DNA of 64,000 nt from assembly GCA_023412665.1 (NCBI GenBank), contig JAEZCA010000059.1, positions 5,163 to 69,162 of the forward strand. The letters are read 5' to 3'. The translations under genes were made by a program, and so were the position numbers. The stretch comes from Bacillota bacterium. Lineage in GTDB: Bacteria; Bacillota; Clostridia; Acetivibrionales; DTU013. The notes beneath the pieces are model-generated. The model did not search any database. It was not told the DNA's origin and was given only the letters and a program-made list of their open reading frames with translations. Below, piece after piece: positions 39,112 through 61,874 of the stretch (the first letter of the stretch is position 1; every line of letters begins with the position of its first letter).

Positions 39112-41643
39112 TCAAGCTGTCACGATCTTGCTCTCTGCCTGAAGCCCAAGCTTTTCGACGGCCCACTCGCGCATTTTGTATTTGAGTATCTTTCCAGCGG
39201 CATTCATGGGGAATTCATTTATAAATTCCACATAGCGCGGCGTTTTATGCTTTGCCATATGCGTACGGCAATACTCCTTTACATCCTCATCCGCCATTTC
39301 CATGCCTTCCTTCAGGATGACACAAGCCATTATTTCTTCACCATACTGCTTGCTGGGCACACCGATGACTTGAACATCCTTTACCTTGGGGTGGGTGTAT
39401 ATGAAATCTTCGATCTCCTTTGGGTATATGTTCTCACCGCCTCGGATGATCATATCCTTTATTCGTCCCGTTATTTTGTAATACCCGTTTTCATCCACCC
39501 TTGCCAGGTCTCCCGTGTGGAGCCAGCCATCCTTGTCTATGGCTGCGGCTGTTGCTTCAGGCATCTTGTAGTAGCCTTTCATAATATTATAGCCACGGGC
39601 TACAAATTCTCCGTCAGTATTGGGAGGCAGCTCCTCATTGGTCTCAGGGTTTACGATTCTGCACTCCACACCCGGAAGAGCGCGGCCTACAGTTTTGACC
39701 CTGAGCTCGACGGAATCATCTACACGGCTCTGGGTACAGCCCGGTGACGACTCAGTCTGTCCGAATACGATGGTTATCTCCTTCATGTTCATCTTTTCAA
39801 CGACATCCTGCATTACCTTTATAGGGCATGGACTTCCTGCCATAATACCGGTCCTCATATATGAGAAGTCAGTCTTTGAAAAATCCTCATGTTCCATCAT
39901 AGCTATAAACATTGTGGGAACACCATGGAATGCTGTAATTTTCTCTTTATTTATGCAATCCAGCGACTGCTTCGGAGAAAAATACGGGATCGGTGACATT
40001 GTAACGCCGTGGGTCATGGAAGCCGTCATTGCAAGCACCATGCCAAAGCAGTGGAACATAGGCACATGTATCATCATCCGGTCGGCAGTTGAAAGATCCA
40101 TACAGTCACCGATACACTTTCCATTGTTCACCACATTGTAGTGGGTGAGCATGACTCCCTTTGGAAAACCGGTAGTGCCCGACGTATACTGCATGTTGCA
40201 GACATCATTCTTATTGATGGACATGGCACGGCGGAAGACCTCCTCAACAGGCGTCTTCTCAGCCAGGGCCATCGCTTCGTCCCATGTGAGGCAGCCTTTT
40301 TGTCTGGAGTCAACGGTGATTATGTTGCGCAGGAACGGCAGCCTCTTCATATGGAGAGGTTTACCTGCTTCTGAATTTTCCAGTTCCGGACACAATTCTT
40401 TTATGATCTCTACATAATTTGAATCCTTAAAGCCATCAATCATGACAAGAGTATGGGTGTCGGACTGGCGGAGCAGGTATTCAGCCTCATATACCTTGTA
40501 TGCGGTATTGACAGTTACGAGAACTGCACCTATTTTCGTAGCCGCCCAGAAGGTGATGAACCACTGAGGCACATTGGTAGCCCAAATGGCCACATGATCA
40601 CCGGGCTTGACCCCCAGCGCTATAAGGGCCCTGGCAAATGTATCTACATCGTCCCTGAATTCGGAATATGTCCTGGTATAGTCCAGTGTAGTATAACGGA
40701 AGGCATACTGGTCCGGAAATTCATCCACCATACGGTCCAATACCTGTGGGAAGGTCAGGTCGATCAGCGTATCCTTTTCCCATACGAACTGACCGGTCTT
40801 TGTATTGTTGTAGAAGAGACGTCCCTTCTGGTATCCCTTTTGCATATATTTTTCCATGTAGTTTATAAAATGAGGGAACACGATACCGGCATCGCTAAGA
40901 TCGCTGGACCATCTTTTTACCCATTCCAGCGAAACATATCCCTCATAATTGATGGAGTTCAATGCCCGCATGAAGTCATCTATGGGCATATCGCCCTCTC
41001 CCATCATCCTGTACGATATCTTGTTGTTTTCAACGATGGAGTCCTTGAAATGTACATACTTGATATATGCGCCAAGATTCTGCACGGTCCTGCCCGGTGT
41101 TTCGCCGGCGAATCGGTATGGATGATGTATGTCCCAGAGAGCTCCTACCGCATCGCTTTCTACGTGGTTCAACAGATCACAGAGGCGCTTTGTGTCTGTA
41201 TATACACCGTTTGTTTCCACCAGTAAAATGACACCCTTTTCTTCTGCAATCGGCGCAAGCCTCTTAAGGGCCGCCAATACTATATTGTCGTCAACCTCAC
41301 CCTCCGCTTGGGGTTCCAGATCTGCAAGTATACGAATATAAGGAGTTTTGAGCTTTACTGCCAGTTCGATATACTCAACTATTTCGGAATGGTTTGCATC
41401 GGCGTTTTCCCCGAACTTCAGACAGCACCCCGAAGAAAGGCAGGGAATCTCGATTCGAAGCTCTGAAAGCTTCCTGATTGTGTTGGGAAGCTCAGCTTGA
41501 GTAAAGGGCTGTGCCCGAACAGCAAATATATCCTTGCCGAGCCCTCTGATCTCTATACCGTCGAACCCTATGTCTTTTGCCATTGAGTAAATATCGGACC
41601 AGTCAAAATCCGGACACCCAAGTGTTGAAAACGCTAGTTTCAT
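39112..41643 (-). CDS. fusion protein: xylose-isomerase-like TIM barrel (sugar phosphate isomerase/epimerase fold) joined to an AMP-dependent synthetase/ligase
   Basis: N-terminal roughly 290 aa carry GFDGIEIRG, LLVETNG, HFKD and SLEW. The C-terminal roughly 550 aa carry adenylation motifs YTSGTTGFPKGV, GQTE, TGDLA and GKILK. The start is ATG 41643 with SD GGAGGAG. The track ORF to 41766 reads through the T-box terminator. Confidence 0.8.
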   Translation of the reverse strand: MKLAFSTLGCPDFDWSDIYSMAKDIGFDGIEIRGLGKDIFAVRAQPFTQAELPNTIRKLSELRIEIPCLSSGCCLKFGENADANHSEIVEYIELAVKLKTPYIRILADLEPQAEGEVDDNIVLAALKRLAPIAEEKGVILLVETNGVYTDTKRLCDLLNHVESDAVGALWDIHHPYRFAGETPGRTVQNLGAYIKYVHFKDSIVENNKISYRMMGEGDMPIDDFMRALNSINYEGYVSLEWVKRWSSDLSDAGIVFPHFINYMEKYMQKGYQKGRLFYNNTKTGQFVWEKDTLIDLTFPQVLDRMVDEFPDQYAFRYTTLDYTRTYSEFRDDVDTFARALIALGVKPGDHVAIWATNVPQWFITFWAATKIGAVLVTVNTAYKVYEAEYLLRQSDTHTLVMIDGFKDSNYVEIIKELCPELENSEAGKPLHMKRLPFLRNIITVDSRQKGCLTWDEAMALAEKTPVEEVFRRAMSINKNDVCNMQYTSGTTGFPKGVMLTHYNVVNNGKCIGDCMDLSTADRMMIHVPMFHCFGMVLAMTASMTHGVTMSPIPYFSPKQSLDCINKEKITAFHGVPTMFIAMMEHEDFSKTDFSYMRTGIMAGSPCPIKVMQDVVEKMNMKEITIVFGQTESSPGCTQSRVDDSVELRVKTVGRALPGVECRIVNPETNEELPPNTDGEFVARGYNIMKGYYKMPEATAAAIDKDGWLHTGDLARVDENGYYKITGRIKDMIIRGGENIYPKEIEDFIYTHPKVKDVQVIGVPSKQYGEEIMACVILKEGMEMADEDVKEYCRTHMAKHKTPRYVEFINEFPMNAAGKILKYKMREWAVEKLGLQAESKIVTA

Positions 41644-42037
41644 TTTAACTCCTCCTCTTCCAATAAATAAATATTTTCTGCCCGGCACCGACCTGCTGAA
41701 ATCAAAAAAGGCCTCCGCCTCACAGCATTTCTGCCGGAGACGAAAGCCTGACTTCCGCGGTACCACTCCAATTGGTATAAATATACCCTCTTCTTAAAGC
41801 ATCGATCAATGGATGATGAATGCCCTCCCTTTGTAACGGCGGGAAACCCGTTCGAACCTACTTGCCAAACAGCCCGATCCCCTCTGAAAATCCCGGGGCC
41901 TCAGCTGCCGCTTTCAGCTGACTGCTCAAGGGTGAGTCCACAATCGCTCCGTGCGCTGTTTCGCAGCAAACAACAGCTCTCTTTGGCACCGGCGGGCGAA
42001 GTGTTTTCCCTATCAACGCATTTATCCGTTTTTTAGT
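41644..42037 (-). promoter_or_regulatory. T-box riboswitch leader, candidate specifier UGG (Trp)
   Basis: Reverse complement shows K-turn UGAUAG, AG bay AAAGAGAG and distal loop GCUGCGAAAC. The specifier region is GAUUG-UGG-ACUC, with UGG at 41940-41938. The T-box sequence AAUUGGAGUGGUACCGCGG lies at 41773-41756. A 12-bp terminator GGCUUUCGUCUC..GAGGCGGAGGCC plus U6 lies at 41748-41704. Confidence 0.85.
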
Positions 42038-42066
42038 ATGCTACCAAAATCCCTCATATTTGTCAA
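42038..42066 (-). promoter_or_regulatory. promoter of the T-box leader
   Basis: TTGACA, 17-nt spacer, TAGCAT on the minus strand. Confidence 0.5.
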
Positions 42067-42256
42067 TATGAAATGTAAATTTTCTCATGTGGCAGACCTC
42101 TAAACCCACAACAGAAGGTCAGACTGACAGCGCTGTTTATTCCGGTTGTGTTTCCAAGCACCTGCATGCAAATGTATGTATTTATGTTTTTGAGGGTAGC
42201 ATAAGGAAATATTGAAATTAATTAACAATTCGCCGGGTTTGAAAGGGGAGATCGGT

Positions 42257-43822
42257 ATGGATAGGAAGCCTTTATTGCTGATAGCCTTTTACAATAAGAA
42301 AGCATTGGGCGTAAGATATCTGGAAAGGTCACTTGTTAAGTCCGGATATGATGTTTATGTCTTGTTCCTTAAGGGCTTCAATAGTGTAAAACCTGATCCT
42401 GTCACCGCCGAAGACATCCTTCTGCTTGAGAAACTTGTCACAAGGCTGAAGCCCGGTCTCATAGGACTTAGTGTCATGTCATCTCTTTATCTTGAATCTG
42501 TTGTTTCAGTAAACAGTTTTCTAAGGAAAGCGTTTGATGTACCTATAGTTTGGGGAGGAGTTTATGCATCAATGTTCTCTGAGGAATGCCTTAAGCATGC
42601 AGACTTCGTTCTGCAGGGAGAGTGCGAGGAGGCTGTTGTCGACCTGGCTGCAGCAGTACTCCGCGGTGAAGACTACAGAAGCATAAAAAATCTGGCATAT
42701 AAGGAACCCCTGCGTGATACAGCTGGAAATACAGTGATCAATAGTTTGAGACCACTGTGTGAAGATCTGGACAAGCTGGGCTACCCCATATCCGGCTTGA
42801 AAAACAAATTCTTTATAGATGGCGGTCGCATTGGATTCGGCGATCCAATGAGCGATTCTGTCAGCTATGAGTTGTCCTCCTCGAGAGGCTGCCCGTTTAT
42901 GTGCTCCTACTGCTGCTCAATCAACCTGAAAAGAATGTACATGGGAAATGGAAGGTACTTGCGCTTCAGAAGCGTGACAAGCGTTATCAGCGAGCTTGAA
43001 GAAGCCTTGGCAAATAACAGATCGATAAGGGTGATACATTTCTGGGATGAAATATTCCCTGATGACAATTCGTGGATAGCAGCTTTTGCAAGCCAGTACA
43101 AGGCGCGGATAGGGCTGCCGTTTGAAATCTGGGCACACCCTCTTCGGATAAACAGCAGCACCATATACAAGCTTGTCGATGCGGGTCTTTATAAGGTAGT
43201 CATGGGAATACAAAGCGGTTCGCAGCATATCCGCAGTGAGATCTTCCATAGGATGGAGACTCAGGAGGATGTGCTTGAAGCTGCAAAAATACTAAGCAGA
43301 AACAAGGTTCCCCAGGTGGTATATGACTTCATACTCCGACATCCGTTCGAAAGTGTGGAAGACATAAAGCAGACATATTTGCTCTGTTCCTGTCTCGAAA
43401 GACCTTTTGAGCTTCAGCTGCATGGACTCAGCTTTTTTCCAGGAACGGACCTGACAGCCGCAGCAAATAAGAAAGGCCTGGATGTCATGAGCACTTTGGA
43501 CTCTGGCCATGATAACAGGATAAAGGATAAATACAAAAGCTACTGGGGGCAGAAAAGCAGCAGCAGAATAATAAATTACTGGTATTCATTAATATACCTC
43601 AGCCAGTTCAGATTCGGCCATCTGCTTTCGGGGCTGTTTAAGGGAAGCGATCCATCACCTCTGGCTGTAAGCACCGTGTTGCTGCTGCACAAGCTATACC
43701 GTCCCGCAGCAAGGATAAGATACCTGTACAAGAAGCTTTCGCTGCTCATCAGAACGGCTGCTGCCAGAAAAAACATCTCAAAGGGCAGACGTCAGACTGT
43801 ACAATATAGTGAGGGAAAGTGA
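42257..43822 (+). CDS. B12-binding-domain radical SAM protein
   Basis: N-terminal Rossmann-like B12-binding segment (LLLIAFYNKKALGVRYL..GYDVYVL). Radical SAM cluster motif CPFMCSYC, and IQSGS. The likely start is ATG 42257 (SD GGGGAG) rather than TTG 42212. Confidence 0.8.
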   Translation: MDRKPLLLIAFYNKKALGVRYLERSLVKSGYDVYVLFLKGFNSVKPDPVTAEDILLLEKLVTRLKPGLIGLSVMSSLYLESVVSVNSFLRKAFDVPIVWGGVYASMFSEECLKHADFVLQGECEEAVVDLAAAVLRGEDYRSIKNLAYKEPLRDTAGNTVINSLRPLCEDLDKLGYPISGLKNKFFIDGGRIGFGDPMSDSVSYELSSSRGCPFMCSYCCSINLKRMYMGNGRYLRFRSVTSVISELEEALANNRSIRVIHFWDEIFPDDNSWIAAFASQYKARIGLPFEIWAHPLRINSSTIYKLVDAGLYKVVMGIQSGSQHIRSEIFHRMETQEDVLEAAKILSRNKVPQVVYDFILRHPFESVEDIKQTYLLCSCLERPFELQLHGLSFFPGTDLTAAANKKGLDVMSTLDSGHDNRIKDKYKSYWGQKSSSRIINYWYSLIYLSQFRFGHLLSGLFKGSDPSPLAVSTVLLLHKLYRPAARIRYLYKKLSLLIRTAAARKNISKGRRQTVQYSEGK

Positions 43823-44679
43823 AAAAACGAGTATTAATAGTATGCATATCATTAACCGCAATAGCAGTCCTGACAGCAGCTATCCTGATGATCTCAATGG
43901 CTGTCATCGAGCTGGAAGCGCATATATATCCGGATTATCCCATGATTGATCTCGAGCATGTGCTGTCAAAAGATACATTTTCAGATGAGGATTACACTGT
44001 TCTCTTTTACCAGACCGGCCTTGGCAGATCTGCAATAGATGAGATCCGCACGAGCAGCAGTAATTGGGCACAGCGTCTGCTGCTGTTCCAGGAGAAATTT
44101 TTTGCCGGAATAAAATATGTATGTGAAAAAAACAGTCCCATTTCAAGGGAAGAATCCATTGTAGATGAAAGCGGCAGCTATATGGCAGGTACGGAATTGG
44201 CACCACTTCATGAGGGGTACATACTAGTGACAAAATCCTCCCATGCCTATGGCTGGAGGAACGGACATTCAGCACTGGTGATCGATGCGGCTAACGGAAG
44301 AACACTTGAATCGGTAGTGCTTGGAACAAACTCCTCCATACAGGATATAAGCAAGTGGACCAACTACCCCAATTTCATTCTGCTCAGGCCAAAGAACTGC
44401 TCATATGAAGAAATGAAGGCAATAGCAGGAACTGCGCAGGAAGTGCTTTTTGATATACCATATGACTTGACTGTAGGTATTTTCAGCCCAAAGCTTGCCG
44501 GCAGGGAAAACGTCACGGGAACACACTGTTCCCATCTGATCTGGCAAGCCTACAGCTATTACGGATATGATCTGGACTCCGACGGGGGCGCTTTGGTGAC
44601 TCCCAATGACATAGCAAACAGCCCGGCCCTTGAGGTTGTTCAGGTTTATGGCGTGGACCCGGGAAATATCTGGCCTTGA
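43819..44679 (+). CDS. membrane-anchored permuted papain-like (NlpC/P60 superfamily, YiiX/YaeF-type) enzyme
   Basis: N-terminal TM helix. The His block (WRNGHSALVID) precedes the Cys block (GTHCSHLIWQAY), which is the circularly permuted order. The GTG start overlaps the rSAM stop (GTGA). Confidence 0.55.
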   Translation: MKKRVLIVCISLTAIAVLTAAILMISMAVIELEAHIYPDYPMIDLEHVLSKDTFSDEDYTVLFYQTGLGRSAIDEIRTSSSNWAQRLLLFQEKFFAGIKYVCEKNSPISREESIVDESGSYMAGTELAPLHEGYILVTKSSHAYGWRNGHSALVIDAANGRTLESVVLGTNSSIQDISKWTNYPNFILLRPKNCSYEEMKAIAGTAQEVLFDIPYDLTVGIFSPKLAGRENVTGTHCSHLIWQAYSYYGYDLDSDGGALVTPNDIANSPALEVVQVYGVDPGNIWP

Positions 44680-46276: not shown

Positions 46277-46957
46277 TCACAGGAGCATGCATAGACGCAT
46301 CAATTCATCTATTTTTTCCGCATTCTTTTGCCCAGGCCGTTCTTCGACTCCGGTCAACACATCGATTGCATATGGAGAAGTATTCCTTATGATCCCGGCC
46401 ACATTTAACGGGTTTATCCCGCCGGCCAGAATTACAGGGAGGGACGTTCCCGACTGCATGACTCTGAATGTCTCTAGCTTGATCAAAATTCCGGATCCAC
46501 CGGGTCTGGCACTGGTATAGGAATCCGCAAGGATCGCGGCTATGCCGGTATCCTCAAGTTTTTTTACAGCACTTTCCGGGTCCGGTATCTCAAAATCACA
46601 TCTGCCTTCCCCAGTAATGCGCAGAGCCTTGATGGTCCTGATACCCAAAGCTTTCATCTGTCCGGCAATGGCCGCTGTTTCCTCCAGTGTTTCCCTGTGA
46701 TGAAGCTGAATGAGGTCAGGTCTGACCGCCTTGGCGATCTCAATCACCTTGCGGACACTGCCCCCCGTCACCACACATGTGCCGACGAACGGAGGTACAT
46801 TGCCGGCAAGCCTGGCAGCCTGATTTGTCGTAAGGTTCCATGGAACAGGCTCGGGATAATCCGTTACAAAGCCCAGCATATGAACGCCGGCATTGACACA
46901 GGCCTCAATATCCTTATTATTCATCAAACCACATATCTTTACCCTTGTCATACGCAT
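46277..46957 (-). CDS. trpF: phosphoribosylanthranilate isomerase
   Basis: VKICGL start motif in a 226-aa TIM barrel. Last gene of the trp operon. Confidence 0.8.
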   Translation of the reverse strand: MRMTRVKICGLMNNKDIEACVNAGVHMLGFVTDYPEPVPWNLTTNQAARLAGNVPPFVGTCVVTGGSVRKVIEIAKAVRPDLIQLHHRETLEETAAIAGQMKALGIRTIKALRITGEGRCDFEIPDPESAVKKLEDTGIAAILADSYTSARPGGSGILIKLETFRVMQSGTSLPVILAGGINPLNVAGIIRNTSPYAIDVLTGVEERPGQKNAEKIDELMRLCMLL

Positions 46958-46982
46958 ACCCTTCCACGGCGCTTACTGCCGA

Positions 46983-47702
46983 TTACTGCCCGGCATAATA
47001 AGAGGGACAGACAGACAGGCTCCTATACATGCCTGAAGCACTATTGGCCTTCAATATTGCCGTTCCGACCAGAACAGCATGGGCTCCCGCTTTTGCAGCA
47101 AGCAGGACGTCCTCCCGGCACGATATTGAACTTTCACTTAAAATAAGTGCCCCGGATTTTACATGTGGCGCCATACGCCCAGTAACACCAACATTTCCAC
47201 AGTCCGTTTCAAATATGCCTATATCCCTGTTGTTTATGCCTATGAAGCTCAGGCCTTGCCGATCTGCAAACTCAATCTCTTCCATGCTGTGTGTTTCCAC
47301 AAGAGGTTCAAGCTCCAGCTGACGGGCATACTCCGTCAGCTGCAGCAGCTGGGTTTTCTTCAGCATCGAGGATATCAGGAGCACAGCTGATGCTCCATAT
47401 TCAGCGCTTTCCTTCAACATATCACGATTTGAAATGAAATCCTTGCGTATCACCGGAACCTTTACACTTCCTGTTATCCGGCGCAGAAGCTCCATGGAGC
47501 CTCCGAAATGATCAGCCTCTGTGACAACGGAAATCACAGGCGCTCCAGCCTTTTCAAGCTCCGCCGCCAGCAAGGCAGGATCCCTTCCTCTGAGAAGGTC
47601 TCCCTCCCCGGGCGACTTGCACTTTATATCAGGTATAACAGGCATCATACCGCCTCTGTAAATTTTCCACAGTGCCTGGGTGCATTTTGTATATTCAGGC
47701 AT
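46983..47702 (-). CDS. trpC: indole-3-glycerol-phosphate synthase
   Basis: VIPDIKCKSPGEG, VIRKDFI and IGINNRD motifs. I place the start at ATG 47702 (SD GGAGAAGG), just after the trpD stop. Confidence 0.8.
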   Translation of the reverse strand: MPEYTKCTQALWKIYRGGMMPVIPDIKCKSPGEGDLLRGRDPALLAAELEKAGAPVISVVTEADHFGGSMELLRRITGSVKVPVIRKDFISNRDMLKESAEYGASAVLLISSMLKKTQLLQLTEYARQLELEPLVETHSMEEIEFADRQGLSFIGINNRDIGIFETDCGNVGVTGRMAPHVKSGALILSESSISCREDVLLAAKAGAHAVLVGTAILKANSASGMYRSLSVCPSYYAGQ

Positions 47703-47715
47703 ATACCTTCTCCAT

Positions 47716-48756
47716 TCATGCAAATTTTTCAGACGGTGCATAATCATGTGATGCTTCTATAAGCTGTTCAAGCTTTTTGTTTGCCGCTCCGCTGTCAATA
47801 AGCTCGCAGGCAAGCCTGATCCCATCCTTGAAGGAGTCGGCTCTCCTGCCGATCATAAGCGCTCCGGCTGAGTTGAGCACTACGGCATTACGCCGTGGTC
47901 CTCTATCCCGGCCTGAGAACACGCCCCGTATCATTTCAGCATTTTCCTGTGGTGTTCCGGTGGCGATTTCTGAAATCGAGCACCTTTCCAAGCCGAAATC
48001 CTCAGGCTTGATTTCATACCTCGCCACCATTCCGTTATCAAGCTCATTAATTATTGTGCTGCCTATCAGAGAGATTTCATCCAGGCCATCTGCTCCATAC
48101 ACAAAGAGAGCTCTTTTATAGCCTATCGATGCGGCAACCTCAGTCACCGTATCCAGCAACTCCTTCTTATAAACGCCCATCACATGCCTGGAGGCCTTTG
48201 AAGGATTTATCAGCGGTCCGATTATCGTATAGAATATGGTCTTGATGCCAAGATCCTTTTCCGGCGGCAGTACCTTGCACATTACAGGGTGAAACAGCGG
48301 TGCGTAGAGAAATGCAATACCTATGTTTTCAATCAGCTTCTCTACTCCGGCCGGGTCCTGATTGATCTCCACTCCAAGTGTCTCCAGGACATCAGCGCTG
48401 CCTGACAGGCTTGAAATGGAACGGCTTCCGTGTTTTGCCACAGGAATGCCTGCCGCCGCAGCTACAAAAGCAGTGGCTGTTGAAATGTTGAAGGTGCTGA
48501 GCCCTCCCCCTGTGCCGCAGGTATCCATCAGCTCCTCGCCGACCAAAGGATTGATTCTGATACAATTGTCCCTCATTGCCTTGGCAATAGCCGTGATTTC
48601 CGACAATGACGGACCTTTCATCAGCAGCGCTACCTGGAAGCCTGCTATCTGTGCCTCACTCAATTCATCATTCCTTATCGCAGCAATGAGGCCGGATATT
48701 TCCTCTGCTGTAAGGTCCCGTTTGTTTGTCAGCTTTGCTAAAATGTTTCTGATCAT
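47716..48756 (-). CDS. trpD: anthranilate phosphoribosyltransferase
   Basis: GTGGGLSTFNISTA and KHGSRSISSLSGSADVLE motifs. The start is probably ATG 48756 (MIRNIL); the track ORF begins at TTG 48780. Confidence 0.85.
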   Translation of the reverse strand: MIRNILAKLTNKRDLTAEEISGLIAAIRNDELSEAQIAGFQVALLMKGPSLSEITAIAKAMRDNCIRINPLVGEELMDTCGTGGGLSTFNISTATAFVAAAAGIPVAKHGSRSISSLSGSADVLETLGVEINQDPAGVEKLIENIGIAFLYAPLFHPVMCKVLPPEKDLGIKTIFYTIIGPLINPSKASRHVMGVYKKELLDTVTEVAASIGYKRALFVYGADGLDEISLIGSTIINELDNGMVARYEIKPEDFGLERCSISEIATGTPQENAEMIRGVFSGRDRGPRRNAVVLNSAGALMIGRRADSFKDGIRLACELIDSGAANKKLEQLIEASHDYAPSEKFA

Positions 48757-48794
48757 ACTCATCTCTCCTCTTCTCATCAAATTTGTTGCTATTG

Positions 48795-49568
48795 CTATTT
48801 TGAAATTGCTTTCTTTATTGTCCCAATGTACTCATCTACATAGGGTATACACTCTGCTCCATATCTGCCGACTATATCGACGATAGCGCTGCCGATGATG
48901 ATCCCATCAGCATATGCTGCTACCTGTGCCGCCTGCTCTGCAGTTGATATGCCGAAGCCTACCGCGCAAGGTATGTCTTTGACCTTTTTGATCGATTTTA
49001 TCATTACCTCCGCATCGCTGCATATTTTCCGCCGTACTCCCGTTACTCCGGTTGAAGACACACAGTAGACAAAACCCTCTGCCCGGGCTGCGATCATACG
49101 TATCCTGTCACCGGATGTGGGCGCTACCATCGATATCAGCACAACTCCATATTTATCACAGAATGGCAGGAGCTCCTCCCTCTCTTCAAAAGGAAGGTCA
49201 GGGACAATGATTGCATCGACCCCGCAGGTTTTGCAATTTGATATGAATCTGTCAGTACCATATGAAAACACCGGGTTCATGTATGTCATAAACGCGATCG
49301 GTATATCGCAGGTGCTGCGGATACGTCTTAACATTGAAAATATTCCATCCGTTGTCGTTCCCGCTTCAAGAGCCCTCCGGTCGGCCGCCTGTATGACAGG
49401 ACCTTCAGCTACAGGGTCTGAAAACGGAATGCCCAGTTCTATCAGATCCGCTCCCGCCTCAGCCATTTTATTTACCAATTGTTCCGTGATCTCCAGCGAA
49501 GGATCTCCCGCTGTTATGAACGGTATAAACGCCTTACTTCCCGAAAATACCTTATCAAGCCTACTCAT
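48795..49568 (-). CDS. trpA: tryptophan synthase alpha chain
   Basis: [28 protein letters not shown] and GFGIST motifs. The start overlaps the trpB stop. Confidence 0.9.
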
Positions 49569-50754
49569 GTATGTTCACCCCCCTGTACCTGGCAATTGCA
49601 GCCACATCCTTGTCGCCCCTGCCTGAAAGGCATATTACCATTATCTGATCCCTTCCCATGCCAGGCGCCAGCTTCCTGGCGTATGCTACGGCATGAGAGC
49701 TTTCTATGGCAGGAATGATCCCTTCAGTACGTGACAGGTACTCAAAGGCAGCCACAGCCTCATCATCGGTGATCGGCACATATTCCGCCCTTCCGATGTC
49801 ATGAAGGTTGGCATGCTCAGGGCCCACGCCGGGATAATCAAGGCCTGCGGAAATCGAATATACAGGCGCTATCTGTCCGTATGCGTCCTGGCAGAAGTAC
49901 GACTTCATCCCGTGGAATATGCCAGGCTTTCCTACTGTCATTGTTGCCGCTGTCTTGTCCGTATCGGCTCCAAGGCCGGCTGCCTCGCAGCCTATTAGAC
50001 GGACTGCGCTGTCATTTATGAATTCATAGAATAACCCCATAGCGTTGCTGCCTCCGCCTACACAGGCAAGTAATGCGTCGGGGAGCCTTCCCTCAGCAGC
50101 CACTATCTGCTCTTTGACTTCGCGGCCAATGATGCTTTGAAAATCCCTCACGAGCATAGGGAACGGATGAGGACCCATAACAGAGCCCAGAACATAATGG
50201 GTGTCCGTGATTCGTCGTGTCCATTCCCGCATGGTCTCATTGACAGCATCCTTGAGTGTCTGTGTTCCGGTCGTCACCGGGTGCACCTTCGCTCCAAGCA
50301 GTTCCATGCGGTAGACATTGAGTGCCTGACGCTTTGTATCCTCCAGACCCATGAAGATTTCACAATCCATATCCAATAAAGCCGCGGCTGTTGCCGTGGC
50401 CACGCCGTGCTGCCCTGCGCCGGTCTCGGCAATTACACGGAGCTTTCCCATTTTTTTTGCTAGCAGCACCTGCCCCAATACATTATTGATTTTGTGGGAG
50501 CCTGTATGGTTCAGGTCTTCCCTTTTCAGATATATCTTCGCACCGCCAAGATCCTTTGTCATTTTCTCTGCGAAGTAAAGCAAGGAAGGCCTGCCTGCGT
50601 AATTTCCCAACAGCCTGTCAAGCTCACCTGTAAAGCCGGGATCATTTTTATAGTGATCATAGGCCTCTTCCAGTTCAATAACAGCATTCATCAGTGTTTC
50701 AGGAACATACTGCCCCCCATGGGCCCCAAACCTGCCTTTTGACAATTTGCTCAA
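49561..50754 (-). CDS. trpB: tryptophan synthase beta chain
   Basis: [27 protein letters not shown] and GGGSNAMG motifs. The start is one of two in-frame TTG codons (50754 or 50745) after GGAGGAGG. Confidence 0.9.
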
Positions 50755-51087
50755 CCTCCTCCGAATGAAATAAAAAAAGCCCTTATCCCCACGAAAGGGA
50801 CAAAAGCTTCTGCTTCTGCGGTACCACCCAATTTGGCGAATAATCGCCCGCTCAAACTGTATACTGATATATACATCCCACTGATAACGGGCGGGATACC
50901 CGTAAACTCCTACTCTCTGTCGATTTCGGGTTTACCTCGCAAGTCCATTCAGAACGACCGCTGCAACCGCATTCCCACCATTTCCGGCAGCTCCGGGCAT
51001 CATAACCGTTTGCCTGGGGCCGGGCGGCTCTCTTTGTACAGCCTGTCAGACCTACTTCTCTTGCTCATCGGTTTCACTGTTTGCTAA
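50755..51087 (-). promoter_or_regulatory. T-box riboswitch leader, specifier UGG (Trp), controlling trpBADCF
   Basis: Reverse complement shows GAUGAG K-turn, AGUAG, AG bay AAAGAGAG and distal loop GGUGGGAAUGCGG. The specifier loop CUGAA-UGG-ACUU has UGG at 50947-50945. The T-box AAAUUGGGUGGUACCGC lies at 50834-50818. The terminator GCUUUUGUCCC..GGGGAUAAGGGC plus U7 lies at 50808-50772. Confidence 0.9.
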
Positions 51088-60232: not shown

Positions 60233-60332
60233 GTCGAAAAAGTGAGATATCTTTAAGTCCGGTACAGTGATGCCGACAAGATGCTATATTATAATATTGG
60301 ATATTTATATCCATCCTTGTAATGATGCGATT

Positions 60333-60370
60333 AGATCTTGCCGTCTGCTGCCGGCAAGATCTTTCAGTTT
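60333..60370 (+). terminator. leader terminator/attenuator upstream of the NCS2 permease
   Basis: AGATCTTGCCG-TCTGCTGC-CGGCAAGATCT followed by TTCAGTTT. An upstream segment CGACAAGAU could pair with the 5' arm as an antiterminator. Confidence 0.6.
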
Positions 60371-60410
60371 GCGCAACAAAAGATCTATTATAAAACAAGG
60401 AGGATTTACC

Positions 60411-61874
60411 ATGCCGAAGAATCAAACTGTGATCGGGTATCTGCCCGATGAAAGGCCCTCGATTTGGAAACTGCTGTTTTACGCACTGCAGCAGGTAATC
60501 GTAATGTTCCCCGCAACAGTAGCCGTCGCACTCATCACCGGCTTTCAAGTATCTACCACGATTTTTGCCAGCGGCCTTGCAACCATATGCTTCATACTCA
60601 TCACTGGCAAAAAGATACCTCTTTATTATGGTTCAAGCTTCTCATACCTCACTGCAATCTCAGGCCTTATGGCAGGCGATGCCATAAGATCCATGGTAAG
60701 TCCTGAGACACTTACACAGCTAGATGCATGGAAAGCAGGCACAACGAGCATACTTCCTGCAGAAGCGATCTCTTATGCTCAGTTCGGAATAATAATGTCA
60801 GGTTTGATATCAATCGCCGCAGGCCTCCTTATAAAGGTTTCCGGCACCAAGGCAGTAGAAAAGATTCTTCCTCCAAGTATAACTGGTCCTATCGCAATGA
60901 TTATAGGCCTTACCCTTGCAGGTACAGCACTTAGCGATGCAGCTCCCAGGGCAGTTGCAGAGGGTGCGGCTGCAACAGTTATGAACAGCAGCTGGGTATG
61001 GGTGGTATCACTTGCCACTCTTCTGTCAACAATATTGTTCTCAAGATACCTTACAGGTTTCCTCGGGCAACTGCCCCTTCTGCTGGGTGCAGCAGTCGGA
61101 TGCGCTACTGCAGCTCTGCTGTATTTTATAGGCGGACCCGAAATGAACCTTTTCAGAGCGATCCCAAAGGAAGCTCTTGAAGCTTCACTGTGGCAGGCAG
61201 GTCCTATAGCGGTACCGGCATTTTCATTCCCTAAGCCTTCATTAGCAGCTGTAATCGCTATAATGCCAATAGCCATCGCAACGATACCTGAATCGACAGC
61301 TCACATGTACCAGTTGGATATCTATATAAACGATCTGGCAAAGAAAAAGAACTCCTCAAAAAAATACAACCTTATAGAAAAGCTTGATAAGAACTTGATA
61401 GGCGACGGTATAGGCGATATGATCTCCGGACTTATCGGAGGCCCTGCCGGAACAAACTATGGAGAAAACATAAGCACAATGGCAATAACCAAGGTGTTCT
61501 CCGTACCGGTACTTATAGTGGCAGCAGTTATTGCTATGATAATGTCCTTCTTCACTCCTCTGGTTCAGGGTATATACTCGATCCCTCAAGCTGTCATAGG
61601 CGGCCTGGAGGTATATCTGTTTGGTGCTATCGCAGCTCAGGGAGCAGCTATCATGATCGAAAAGAAGGTTGACATGTTCAGCTCAAAGAATATTGCAGTA
61701 ATAGCAACGATAATGGTAATAGGTCTCGGCGGCAACTATGCCTTCGGAGGAAATATCCCGTTCTTCGGTATCGAAGTTCCATGTATTGCAGGCGCTGCCA
61801 TATTCGGTATCATCCTGAACATGATCCTCAGTATCGGCGAGAAGAAAAATGCCGAACAGGAAACAGCTGAATAA
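60411..61874 (+). CDS. NCS2-family nucleobase (uracil/xanthine-type) permease
   Basis: About 487 aa with 12-14 TM helices. The QQVIVMFPATVAV start pattern and IPESTAH / GENIS motifs are typical of uracil-xanthine permeases. The start is ATG 60411 with SD AGGAGG. The track ORF from 60267 reads through the leader. Confidence 0.8.
   Translation: MPKNQTVIGYLPDERPSIWKLLFYALQQVIVMFPATVAVALITGFQVSTTIFASGLATICFILITGKKIPLYYGSSFSYLTAISGLMAGDAIRSMVSPETLTQLDAWKAGTTSILPAEAISYAQFGIIMSGLISIAAGLLIKVSGTKAVEKILPPSITGPIAMIIGLTLAGTALSDAAPRAVAEGAAATVMNSSWVWVVSLATLLSTILFSRYLTGFLGQLPLLLGAAVGCATAALLYFIGGPEMNLFRAIPKEALEASLWQAGPIAVPAFSFPKPSLAAVIAIMPIAIATIPESTAHMYQLDIYINDLAKKKNSSKKYNLIEKLDKNLIGDGIGDMISGLIGGPAGTNYGENISTMAITKVFSVPVLIVAAVIAMIMSFFTPLVQGIYSIPQAVIGGLEVYLFGAIAAQGAAIMIEKKVDMFSSKNIAVIATIMVIGLGGNYAFGGNIPFFGIEVPCIAGAAIFGIILNMILSIGEKKNAEQETAE

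Follow-up and report, generated by a model that had tools for sequence, protein, structure and literature searches.

The stretch of DNA analyzed here, referred to as the window, comprises 64,000 nucleotides (nt) of the Bacillota bacterium assembly GCA_023412665.1 (contig JAEZCA010000059.1, positions 5,163 to 69,162 of the forward strand; GTDB lineage Clostridia, Acetivibrionales, DTU013). Its minus strand carries a T-box leader followed by one open reading frame (ORF) of 843 amino acids (aa), in which a xylose-isomerase-like TIM barrel is fused to an AMP-forming acyl-CoA ligase (Table 1). When the whole window was scanned with Rfam, exactly one match above the curated threshold was obtained, namely the T-box family RF00230 at 42025-41733 on the minus strand. 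The match had a score of 101.1 bits (gathering score, 93) and an E value of 3.9e-21, and covered the full model (1-219). A first-pass annotation made from the sequence had described a complete T-box leader on this strand, together with its promoter, K-turn, AG bay, T-box sequence, and terminator with a U6 tract, and the leader and all of these parts were found where they had been placed. The same annotation had assigned the leader to tryptophan; as described below, it is very probably specific for leucine.

Table 1 Features of the T-box leader and of the gene that follows it (positions in the window)
Feature	Position	Strand	Basis
Promoter TTGACA-17-TAGCAT with extended -10 TG	42066-42038	minus	promoter scan, 10/12 matches
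T-box leader: Stem I, Stem II with 45-nt insertion, IIA/B, Stem III, T-box and antiterminator	41733..42025	minus	RF00230
Stem I: K-turn (UGAU...UGAGC), specifier loop, AG bay, distal loop	41924..42019	minus	cmscan alignment
AG bay AAAGAGAG	41984-41977	minus	sequence
UGG taken as the specifier in the first-pass annotation	41938..41940	minus	4 nt 5' of the true register
Probable specifier codon CUC (Leu)	41934..41936	minus	cmscan register, orthologue conservation
T-box sequence AAUUGGAGUGGUACCGCGG	41773-41755	minus	sequence and cmscan alignment
Leader terminator: long G+C-rich hairpin and U6, alternative to the antiterminator	41748-41704	minus	fold and terminator scan
843-aa ORF, TIM-barrel::acyl-CoA ligase fusion, with upstream ribosome-binding site GGAGGAG	41643-39112	minus	ORF list, Pfam
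N-terminal xylose-isomerase-like TIM barrel, about aa 1-270	40834..41643	minus	PF01261
C-terminal AMP-forming acyl-CoA ligase, aa 291-843	39115..40773	minus	PF00501 and PF13193
Gene terminator CCGGGAUG-loop-CAUCCCGG and U6	39052-39023	minus	sequence

The promoter in front of the leader was the top-scoring site of its strand in the region. The hairpin of the leader terminator spans 41748-41710. The 3' part of the leader folded at -47 kcal/mol (z = -5.84), and 0 of 200 shuffled sequences folded as well. Within the T-box sequence, the UGGU at 41765-41762 is the predicted partner of the tRNA 3' end NCCA. The score, a Stem I showing covariation, the UGGN bulge, and a terminator with a U-tract that excludes the antiterminator all place the leader in RF00230. 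Judged by these features, the leader is a canonical transcription-attenuating T-box riboswitch, for which readthrough by uncharged tRNA is predicted. The fusion gene is monocistronic because it has an intrinsic terminator of its own, as the first-pass annotation had stated together with the 843-aa fusion, and the next gene on the minus strand, encoding a P-type ATPase (38893-36302), has its own promoter-like site at 39014-38985.

Subsequently, the specifier codon was examined. The earlier assignment to tryptophan relied on UGG being the only codon of the specifier region that is followed by the conserved A. However, CUC at 41936-41934 precedes an A as well (A41933), and this A is followed directly by the strand CCCU (41932-41929) of the closing helix, which pairs with AGGG (42011-42008) just after the K-turn. 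In the cmscan register, the leader reads GGA-CUC-A and then CCCU, and the T-box leader of the neighboring trp operon reads GAA-UGG-A at the same model positions. Since the same covariance-model register returns UGG in the trp-operon T-box, the specifier of the leader studied here should be CUC. In the minimum-free-energy fold, the first two bases of the UGG at 41940-41938 are paired in the helix above the specifier loop.

The related loci gave the same register. From 581 fusion relatives among the GTDB species representatives, 80 loci with close relatives were fetched, one genome per species, and their ORFs were called by a simple script. A T-box was called in these loci when the family signature GAGUGGUACC was present within 460 nt of the start codon. 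The T-boxes of the window and of six other leaders were confirmed with Rfam, and those of the other related loci were recognized by this motif and by a parsing rule: three nt of specifier, one nt, a 4-nt strand complementary to the 4 nt that follow the K-turn GA, one nt, and the K-turn GAGC. In an alignment of 38 Stem I sequences, the three CUC columns were invariant and the flanking columns were variable, with a mean column identity of 69%. In these 38 leaders, 87% of the cells of Stem I were paired, compared with 78% in column shuffles and 34-51% in controls with slid partners; 18 of the 23 pairs had changes on both sides, and 0 of 500 shuffles reached the observed values. The four-pair closing helix, which sets the register, was paired in 100% of the cells and showed compensatory changes in all four pairs.

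When the parsing rule was applied to every T-box found, in front of fused genes as well as of the split operons described below, CUC was read in 64 of 66 leaders. The register was confirmed by cmscan in the loci L036 and L145 and in three split-operon leaders; among the scanned leaders, L107, L095, and L129 read CUC. The triplet homologous to UGG 41940-41938 was UGA in 29, GAA in 13, and UGG in 12 of the 66 leaders. Conservation of the specifier in orthologous leaders had been proposed as a check on the tryptophan assignment, and the outcome refutes it. The base after the specifier codon was A in 35, G in 22, C in 7, and U in 2 leaders, so that pyrimidines occur there as well. As the change from tryptophan to leucine illustrates, the specifier cannot be called from a triplet with an A behind it; its register relative to the closing helix is decisive. 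It should be noted that the fused proteins are 76-94% identical, which limits the independence of their leaders as samples; in this respect, the leaders of the split operons are the stronger confirmation. Taken together, these findings suggest with high confidence that the T-box is leucine specific, with CUC as the specifier.

Two leaders, L036:1873-2123 (GUC, Val) and L145:6594-6857 (UUC, Phe), are otherwise typical and differ from the others by a change in the first codon position. We considered whether they belong to re-specialized paralogues, and this was rejected. At conserved sites, the enzymes of L036 and L145 deviate 11 times and once, respectively, the median being 6; they are not unusually diverged, and the codons look like point changes. 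The UUC of L145 could still form a wobble pair with the anticodon GAG.

The discriminator base of tRNA-Leu is A73. The variable residue of the UGGN bulge was U in all leaders, which is compatible with this base. UGGU nevertheless fails to discriminate leucine from tryptophan, since it is likewise present in the trp-operon leader of the window. Compared with the Leu T-boxes of leuS and of ilv-leu operons in Bacillus subtilis and Clostridia, the leader belongs to the same RF00230 family and has the same architecture, the canonical position of CUC, and the same UGGU. It differs from them in two details of the fused clade, in which the specifier loop has AAAACAC on its 5' side (42007-42001 in the window and its orthologues) in place of the canonical AGUA, and the T-box sequence has GAGUGG in place of GGGUGG. 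As an RNA, the leader is an unremarkable T-box with a Leu specifier, and its mechanism is nothing new.

The difference lies in the target, which here is neither an aminoacyl-tRNA synthetase, a known gene of leucine or branched-chain amino acid biosynthesis, nor a transporter. A compendium of T-box regulons covering 93 genomes lists no targets of Leu T-boxes other than leuS, leuA, ilv/leu operons, and brnQ (PMC3766115, supplement 2), and an earlier T-box survey makes no mention of CoA ligases (PMC2494555). Our literature searches found nothing on the module of barrel and ligase, although some central reviews on T-boxes lay outside their coverage, so that an earlier mention is possible. The module therefore appears to be a new T-box target, in agreement with the view of the first-pass annotation that this target is unusual.

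Next, the regulated protein was analyzed. Pfam matches on the 843-aa ORF were AP_endonuc_2 at aa 22-244, AMP-binding at aa 303-692, and AMP-binding_C at aa 743-818. For the ligase, the scores of PF00501 (302.6 bits) and PF13193 (66.1 bits) were both above the gathering score, and all ANL motifs were present. Its best NCBIfam match was PRK12583, 'fatty acid CoA ligase family', which aligned end-to-end with 711 bits, below the family cutoff of 832, so that the ligase is PRK12583-like but not a member by the curated criterion; a ligase from a split operon scored 742 bits. The matches that followed were other models of fatty and medium-chain acyl-CoA ligases, and MbcS (NF047394, cutoff 850) was not among the top 25 NCBIfam families of the fusion. 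Relatives in the PDB were only broad ANL enzymes, such as fatty-acyl, feruloyl, malonyl, and oxalyl-CoA ligases. Thus, the ligase is of the fatty or medium-chain type and not, as had been supposed, like anthranilate-CoA ligase. B. subtilis YngI and human ACSF2, which we take to be PRK12583/FACL-like relatives, would represent the best-scoring curated family; the ligase of the window differs from this family in being fused or adjacent to the barrel.

The barrel matched PF01261 with 100.3 bits (gathering score, 31.1). Its PDB matches at the sequence level were weak, with E values of 6e-6 for the isomerase Art22 and 0.0018 for AsbF. An AlphaFold2 model of the barrel was obtained with a predicted local distance difference test score of 77 and a predicted template modeling score of 0.80. 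A Foldseek search with this model returned Art22, ketose 3-epimerases, IolI, and YcjR (template modeling score, about 0.7; E, about 1e-11; identity, 14-21%), and the probability was 1.00 for many members of the family. The role of Art22 was not found in the aurantinin literature. The residues E143, D171, H174, H198, and E240 did not vary among the fusions and hardly varied among stand-alone relatives, and the sequence spacing of E143, D171, H198, and E240 resembles that of the metal-binding and catalytic residues of ketose 3-epimerases. On the basis of these invariant residues and their epimerase-like spacing, the barrel is probably an active metal-dependent epimerase or isomerase acting beside a carbonyl. 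The earlier idea of an AsbF-type barrel is not supported, as the best matches are epimerases and isomerases.

With D-psicose/D-tagatose 3-epimerase and the other ketose 3-epimerases, IolI, YcjR, and Art22, the barrel shares the fold and, judging by the spacing of its conserved residues, probably the Glu-Asp-His-Glu pattern of metal-binding and catalytic residues; unlike them, it reaches no equivalog model, and it is only 14-21% identical to them. The named epimerase and isomerase equivalogs (fructoselysine 3-epimerase, IolO, hydroxypyruvate isomerase, and L-ribulose-5-P 3-epimerase) gave 26-47 bits against cutoffs of 200-353; the best of all, fructoselysine 3-epimerase, gave 47 bits against a cutoff of 305. 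The barrel family also has invariant residues of its own, namely Cys10, WD-HH-YR, and KRW. These family-specific residues and the obligatory CoA-ligase partner point to a substrate of the barrel other than a sugar.

The barrel and the ligase were found to occur together well beyond the fusion of the window. At least 120 homologues of the fusion were listed with 81-94% identity; all had the same three Pfam domains and carried only generic names. The hosts of the fused loci include Acetivibrio, Ruminiclostridium, Thermoclostridium, and Oscillospiraceae in the Clostridia, Dehalobacter, Desulforamulus, Pelotomaculum, and Formimonas in the Peptococcaceae and their relatives, and Sporomusa in the Negativicutes. 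When the barrel alone was searched against 1.84 billion cluster representatives, many stand-alone proteins of about 270 aa with 31-46% identity were obtained. In Anaerotruncus colihominis, a barrel of this kind shares a gene cluster with a stand-alone ligase, which has 59% identity to the C-terminal half of the fusion. When stand-alone barrels were used to scan metagenomes, 80 loci were obtained, 10 of which were fusions. Among the loci with stand-alone barrels (40-51% identity), a ligase gene (56-66% identity) lay immediately upstream on the same strand in 45 of the 54 that could be assessed.

In these split operons the order is ligase and then barrel, the reverse of the domain order barrel::ligase in the fusion. 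Hence, the association must have arisen or been kept independently of one fusion event, and in all likelihood the barrel and the ligase form a functional pair. Of the 78 fused loci whose upstream sequence was long enough, 63 are preceded by a T-box, as are no fewer than 12 of the split operons, and all eight of the split-operon leaders that could be parsed have CUC. Stem I of the split-operon leaders differs from that of the fused clade in having the canonical S-turn AGUA...GAA and a closing helix of GGAG/CUCC or GGAA/UUCC; the three of them that were scanned with Rfam scored 114-124 bits. The pair is distributed over Clostridia, Peptococcaceae, and Negativicutes, with a Leu T-box ahead of a large part of both forms.

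We also attempted to identify genes that accompany the pair. By ORF calling and all-against-all clustering, no consistently linked neighbor was found, and no family occurred in more than 9 of the 80 fused loci. The most frequent neighbors (P-type ATPase, B12-radical SAM, MCP, and cation efflux) reflect synteny among close relatives. The operon partners at loci without a T-box were considered as candidates and rejected; they are heterogeneous, each occurring in 1-3 loci, and include a PutP-like SSF transporter, MatE, a thioredoxin-reductase-like protein, PFOR, GNAT, and DUF4397. In one digester lineage, an Amidohydro_2 protein (PF04909) of about 263 aa is the third member of 11 Leu T-box operons. 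Its gene lies 10-60 nt after the barrel in nine of them (L091, L092, L096, L097, L100, L103, L105, L107, and L108) and before the ligase in L102 and L104, and the housekeeping cluster uppS-cdsA-dxr-rseP-ispG follows it. This protein had no match in NCBIfam, and its hits in the PDB were only distant decarboxylases and hydrolases.

In seven loci, a second AMP-forming ligase, whose best NCBIfam family is MbcS, adjoins the module together with an HTH-cupin regulator; the copy in L109 scored 495 bits against the NF047394 cutoff of 850. The order in L109 is T-box, HTH-cupin regulator, MbcS-like acyl-CoA synthetase, a 113-aa ORF, ligase, and barrel. The T-box (L109:1718-1957; found also in L113 and L114, all of a gut lineage) scored 92 bits and carries the GAGUGGUACC signature. 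Its specifier is most probably AUC (Ile), with UCA in an alternative register. This T-box hints that the scavenging of branched acids may be T-box gated for isoleucine, too. A pyruvate:ferredoxin-oxidoreductase-type gene (L077:2424-5951) lies 49 nt upstream of the module in L077, and a gene for a stand-alone E2-type acyltransferase (PF00198; L167:2690-3700) lies directly downstream of a distant fusion. These minority neighbors point loosely to acyl-CoA and 2-oxoacid chemistry and define no pathway. L037 and L039 also have a thioredoxin-reductase-like gene directly upstream of the module, and in Anaerotruncus such a gene lies nearby (L081:1010-1936).

Several other features of the window were recorded. 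The T-box of the trp operon (51077-50793, minus strand) was detected in a permissive Rfam scan with 88.2 bits, just under the gathering score of 93, and has UGG in the canonical specifier position. The operon itself (46277-50754) has the gene order trpB-trpA-trpD-trpC-trpF and, as described in the first-pass annotation, is without trpE/G. Two plus-strand genes at 42212-44679 are transcribed divergently from the promoter of the Leu T-box. One encodes a B12-binding radical SAM protein of 536 aa and starts with TTG; the other, which overlaps it, is an ORF of 286 aa without a Pfam match. This pair is syntenic in 6-7 closely related loci. On the plus strand, 60246-60368 matched the PyrR-binding site with 49.5 bits (gathering score, 54; E, 9e-4), and this sub-threshold match overlaps the 5' end of a 535-aa ORF with a GTG start (60267-61874). 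Two further sub-threshold Rfam hits, at 47426-47535 and 50772-50876, were to SNORD10, a eukaryotic snoRNA, and to a Burkholderia small RNA, respectively; the second overlaps the terminator region of the trp T-box. Both are almost certainly chance matches.

From these results, the following function is proposed for the locus. Uncharged tRNA-Leu with the anticodon GAG would dock on Stem I; the anticodon would pair with CUC, and the elbow of the tRNA would rest on the platform of the distal loop and AG bay. The free NCCA end would then pair with UGGU and stabilize the antiterminator, so that the terminator is blocked and the ORF is transcribed. Charged tRNA cannot stabilize the antiterminator; the terminator would therefore form, and the gene would be made when the charging of leucyl-tRNA falls. 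Accordingly regulated, the enzyme would be produced under leucine starvation and would raise the supply of leucine. The ligase would activate a scavenged acid to its CoA thioester; the likeliest candidates are isovalerate and other branched acids of short or medium chain length. The thioester would undergo reductive carboxylation by a 2-oxoacid:ferredoxin oxidoreductase to 4-methyl-2-oxopentanoate, which would be transaminated to leucine, and the barrel would epimerize or isomerize the acid, the thioester, or the 2-oxoacid beside its carbonyl. Taken as a whole, a Leu T-box, a paired module, and a supply of leucine from a scavenged acid form the explanation that we regard as reasonably likely. 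More tentatively, the module may serve the activation of isovalerate on its way to leucine under leucine starvation. The assignment of the module as a leucine-starvation-induced entry enzyme from an acid to leucine, with the barrel isomerizing or epimerizing a 2-oxoacid or acyl-CoA intermediate in a so far undescribed reaction, is likewise put forward with reserve.

The carriers of the module are strict anaerobes of digesters and guts, where branched volatile acids abound. Rumen anaerobes have long been known to make leucine by carboxylating isovalerate (Allison et al. 1962-66, cited in PMC7356843). This route, in which the activation of isovalerate precedes a ferredoxin-dependent carboxylation, would explain a leucine-starvation-induced acyl-CoA ligase in anaerobic Bacillota, although the link to the present locus comes by inference and the known route has no isomerase. 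In a cell that also ferments leucine to isovalerate, activation of this acid by an AMP-forming ligase would lead to futile cycling, and a shut-off by charged tRNA-Leu would make sense for this reason. A partly comparable enzyme is MbcS of Staphylococcus aureus (NF047394), likewise an AMP-forming acyl-CoA synthetase, which scavenges external branched short-chain acids and is tied to branched-chain amino acid limitation (PMC10026030). In contrast to MbcS, the ligase of the window belongs to a different, PRK12583-like subfamily, is always paired with a TIM barrel, and is under a T-box. MbcS acts well on 2-methylbutyrate and isobutyrate and poorly on isovalerate (PMC10026030), which leaves room for a separate isovalerate enzyme.

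A number of observations weigh against this proposal. As for the leader, two of the 66 parsed leaders read GUC (L036) and UUC (L145), and no tRNA gene lies within the window by which the partner tRNA could be checked. No T-box was found at 15 of the 78 fused loci or at most split operons; the Rfam check of this absence, made at the gathering threshold, covered eight fused loci and one split locus (L081). The distant fusions L166 and L167 (barrel identity, 39-51%) also had no T-box. As for the enzyme, the ligase falls short of the PRK12583 cutoff, and searches of NCBIfam and the PDB gave no close relative of it that has been characterized or crystallized. No branched-chain 2-oxoacid oxidoreductase, aminotransferase, or carboxylate transporter was consistently linked in the 80 fused loci. 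Furthermore, an isomerase has no place in the isovalerate route, although no other partner is coupled to the ligase as tightly as the barrel. This coupling and the Amidohydro_2 partner of the 11 operons indicate that the true substrate may be a more functionalized keto- or hydroxy-acid.

The alternatives differ in what they make of the leader and of the enzyme. According to the first-pass annotation, the fusion is induced by a Trp (UGG) T-box and provides or salvages an aromatic precursor of tryptophan, by a barrel like dehydroshikimate dehydratase and a ligase like anthranilate-CoA ligase. UGG followed by A is indeed present in the 3' strand of Stem I (41940-41937), the Trp T-box operon without trpE/G lies 9 kb away, AsbF is among the weak PDB matches of the barrel, and anthranilate-CoA ligase 4wv3 is among the many hits of the ligase. 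However, this UGG is out of register and partly base-paired, and it recurs in only 12 of 66 leaders, the commonest triplet at its position being UGA, a stop codon, whereas CUC is invariant in the 38-leader alignment at the canonical position. With CUC as the specifier, the idea of aromatic or Trp-precursor salvage loses its only support, and the barrel and the ligase match epimerases or isomerases and PRK12583 best; we therefore consider it hardly credible. A leucine specifier might instead be an accident, if the T-box is decaying or re-purposed and CUC reflects shared ancestry after the duplication of a leader, for example, from leuS or ilv. T-boxes do spread by duplication (PMC2494555), many of the leaders precede closely similar proteins and are not independent, and the 15 fused loci without a leader have lost it or never had one. 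Against this, CUC was kept in spite of strong divergence of the leaders, with variable flanks and compensatory changes, and it was also kept in the far more distant split-operon leaders with their different closing helix and S-turn. All functional elements are intact as well, and such an accident is very improbable.

Two further readings accept the Leu T-box and differ in the chemistry. The module may salvage a functionalized acid related to leucine, of the keto-, hydroxy-, or lactone type, via an undescribed pathway, in which the barrel isomerizes or epimerizes it beside a carbonyl, the Amidohydro_2 protein of some lineages hydrolyzes, hydrates, or decarboxylates it, and the ligase makes a CoA ester for branched-chain amino acid metabolism. 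Consistent with this are the very tight coupling of barrel and ligase, fused or adjacent, the apparently intact catalytic metal site with its invariant residues, the Amidohydro_2 gene as the third gene of 11 T-box operons, and the recurrence nearby of a separate MbcS-like ligase that is better suited to simple branched short-chain acids. In addition, no characterized homologue was found in NCBIfam, the PDB, or the literature searches. However, the data yield no candidate substrate, no further pathway genes are conserved nearby, and Amidohydro_2 is absent from the locus of the window and from most loci; this reading is a possibility that we would not favor, but one to be taken seriously. Alternatively, the T-box may serve to spare leucine. 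When leucine is limiting, the ligase would make isovaleryl-CoA or another branched acyl-CoA from external acids, to prime branched-chain fatty acids or for other purposes, and this would keep leucine and its keto acid from being drained. MbcS has such a role in S. aureus, where the branched short-chain acids that it scavenges serve to prime FabH (PMC10026030, PMC11167679). The ligase domain is of the fatty-acyl-CoA ligase type, and no genes for reductive carboxylation are linked in the 80 fused loci. On the other hand, many of the host lineages are not known for iso-branched membranes. Known T-box targets act to increase the amount of the cognate tRNA in its charged form, and the barrel is left unexplained by leucine sparing, too. 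This reading seems rather improbable.

T-box specifiers are among the few features that state which amino acid an uncharacterized gene serves, and the amino acid here is very likely leucine. The module is present in hundreds of species of anaerobic Bacillota from digesters, sediments, and the human gut, where it is currently labeled in databases as 'AMP-binding protein', 'fatty-acyl-CoA synthase', and 'sugar phosphate isomerase/epimerase'. The conversion of isovalerate to leucine has been known physiologically since the 1960s; the enzyme that activates isovalerate in these lineages was not found in the literature, and the locus is a candidate for it. If the substrate differs from isovalerate, the module would mark a leucine-related pathway yet to be described. 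If the proposed function is correct, the fusion would add a new class of enzyme to the T-box regulon and might be one of a family of T-box-gated ligases for the salvage of acids to amino acids, as hinted at by the probable Ile T-box before the MbcS-like ligase in L109 and by the single Val (GUC) and Phe (UUC) leaders.

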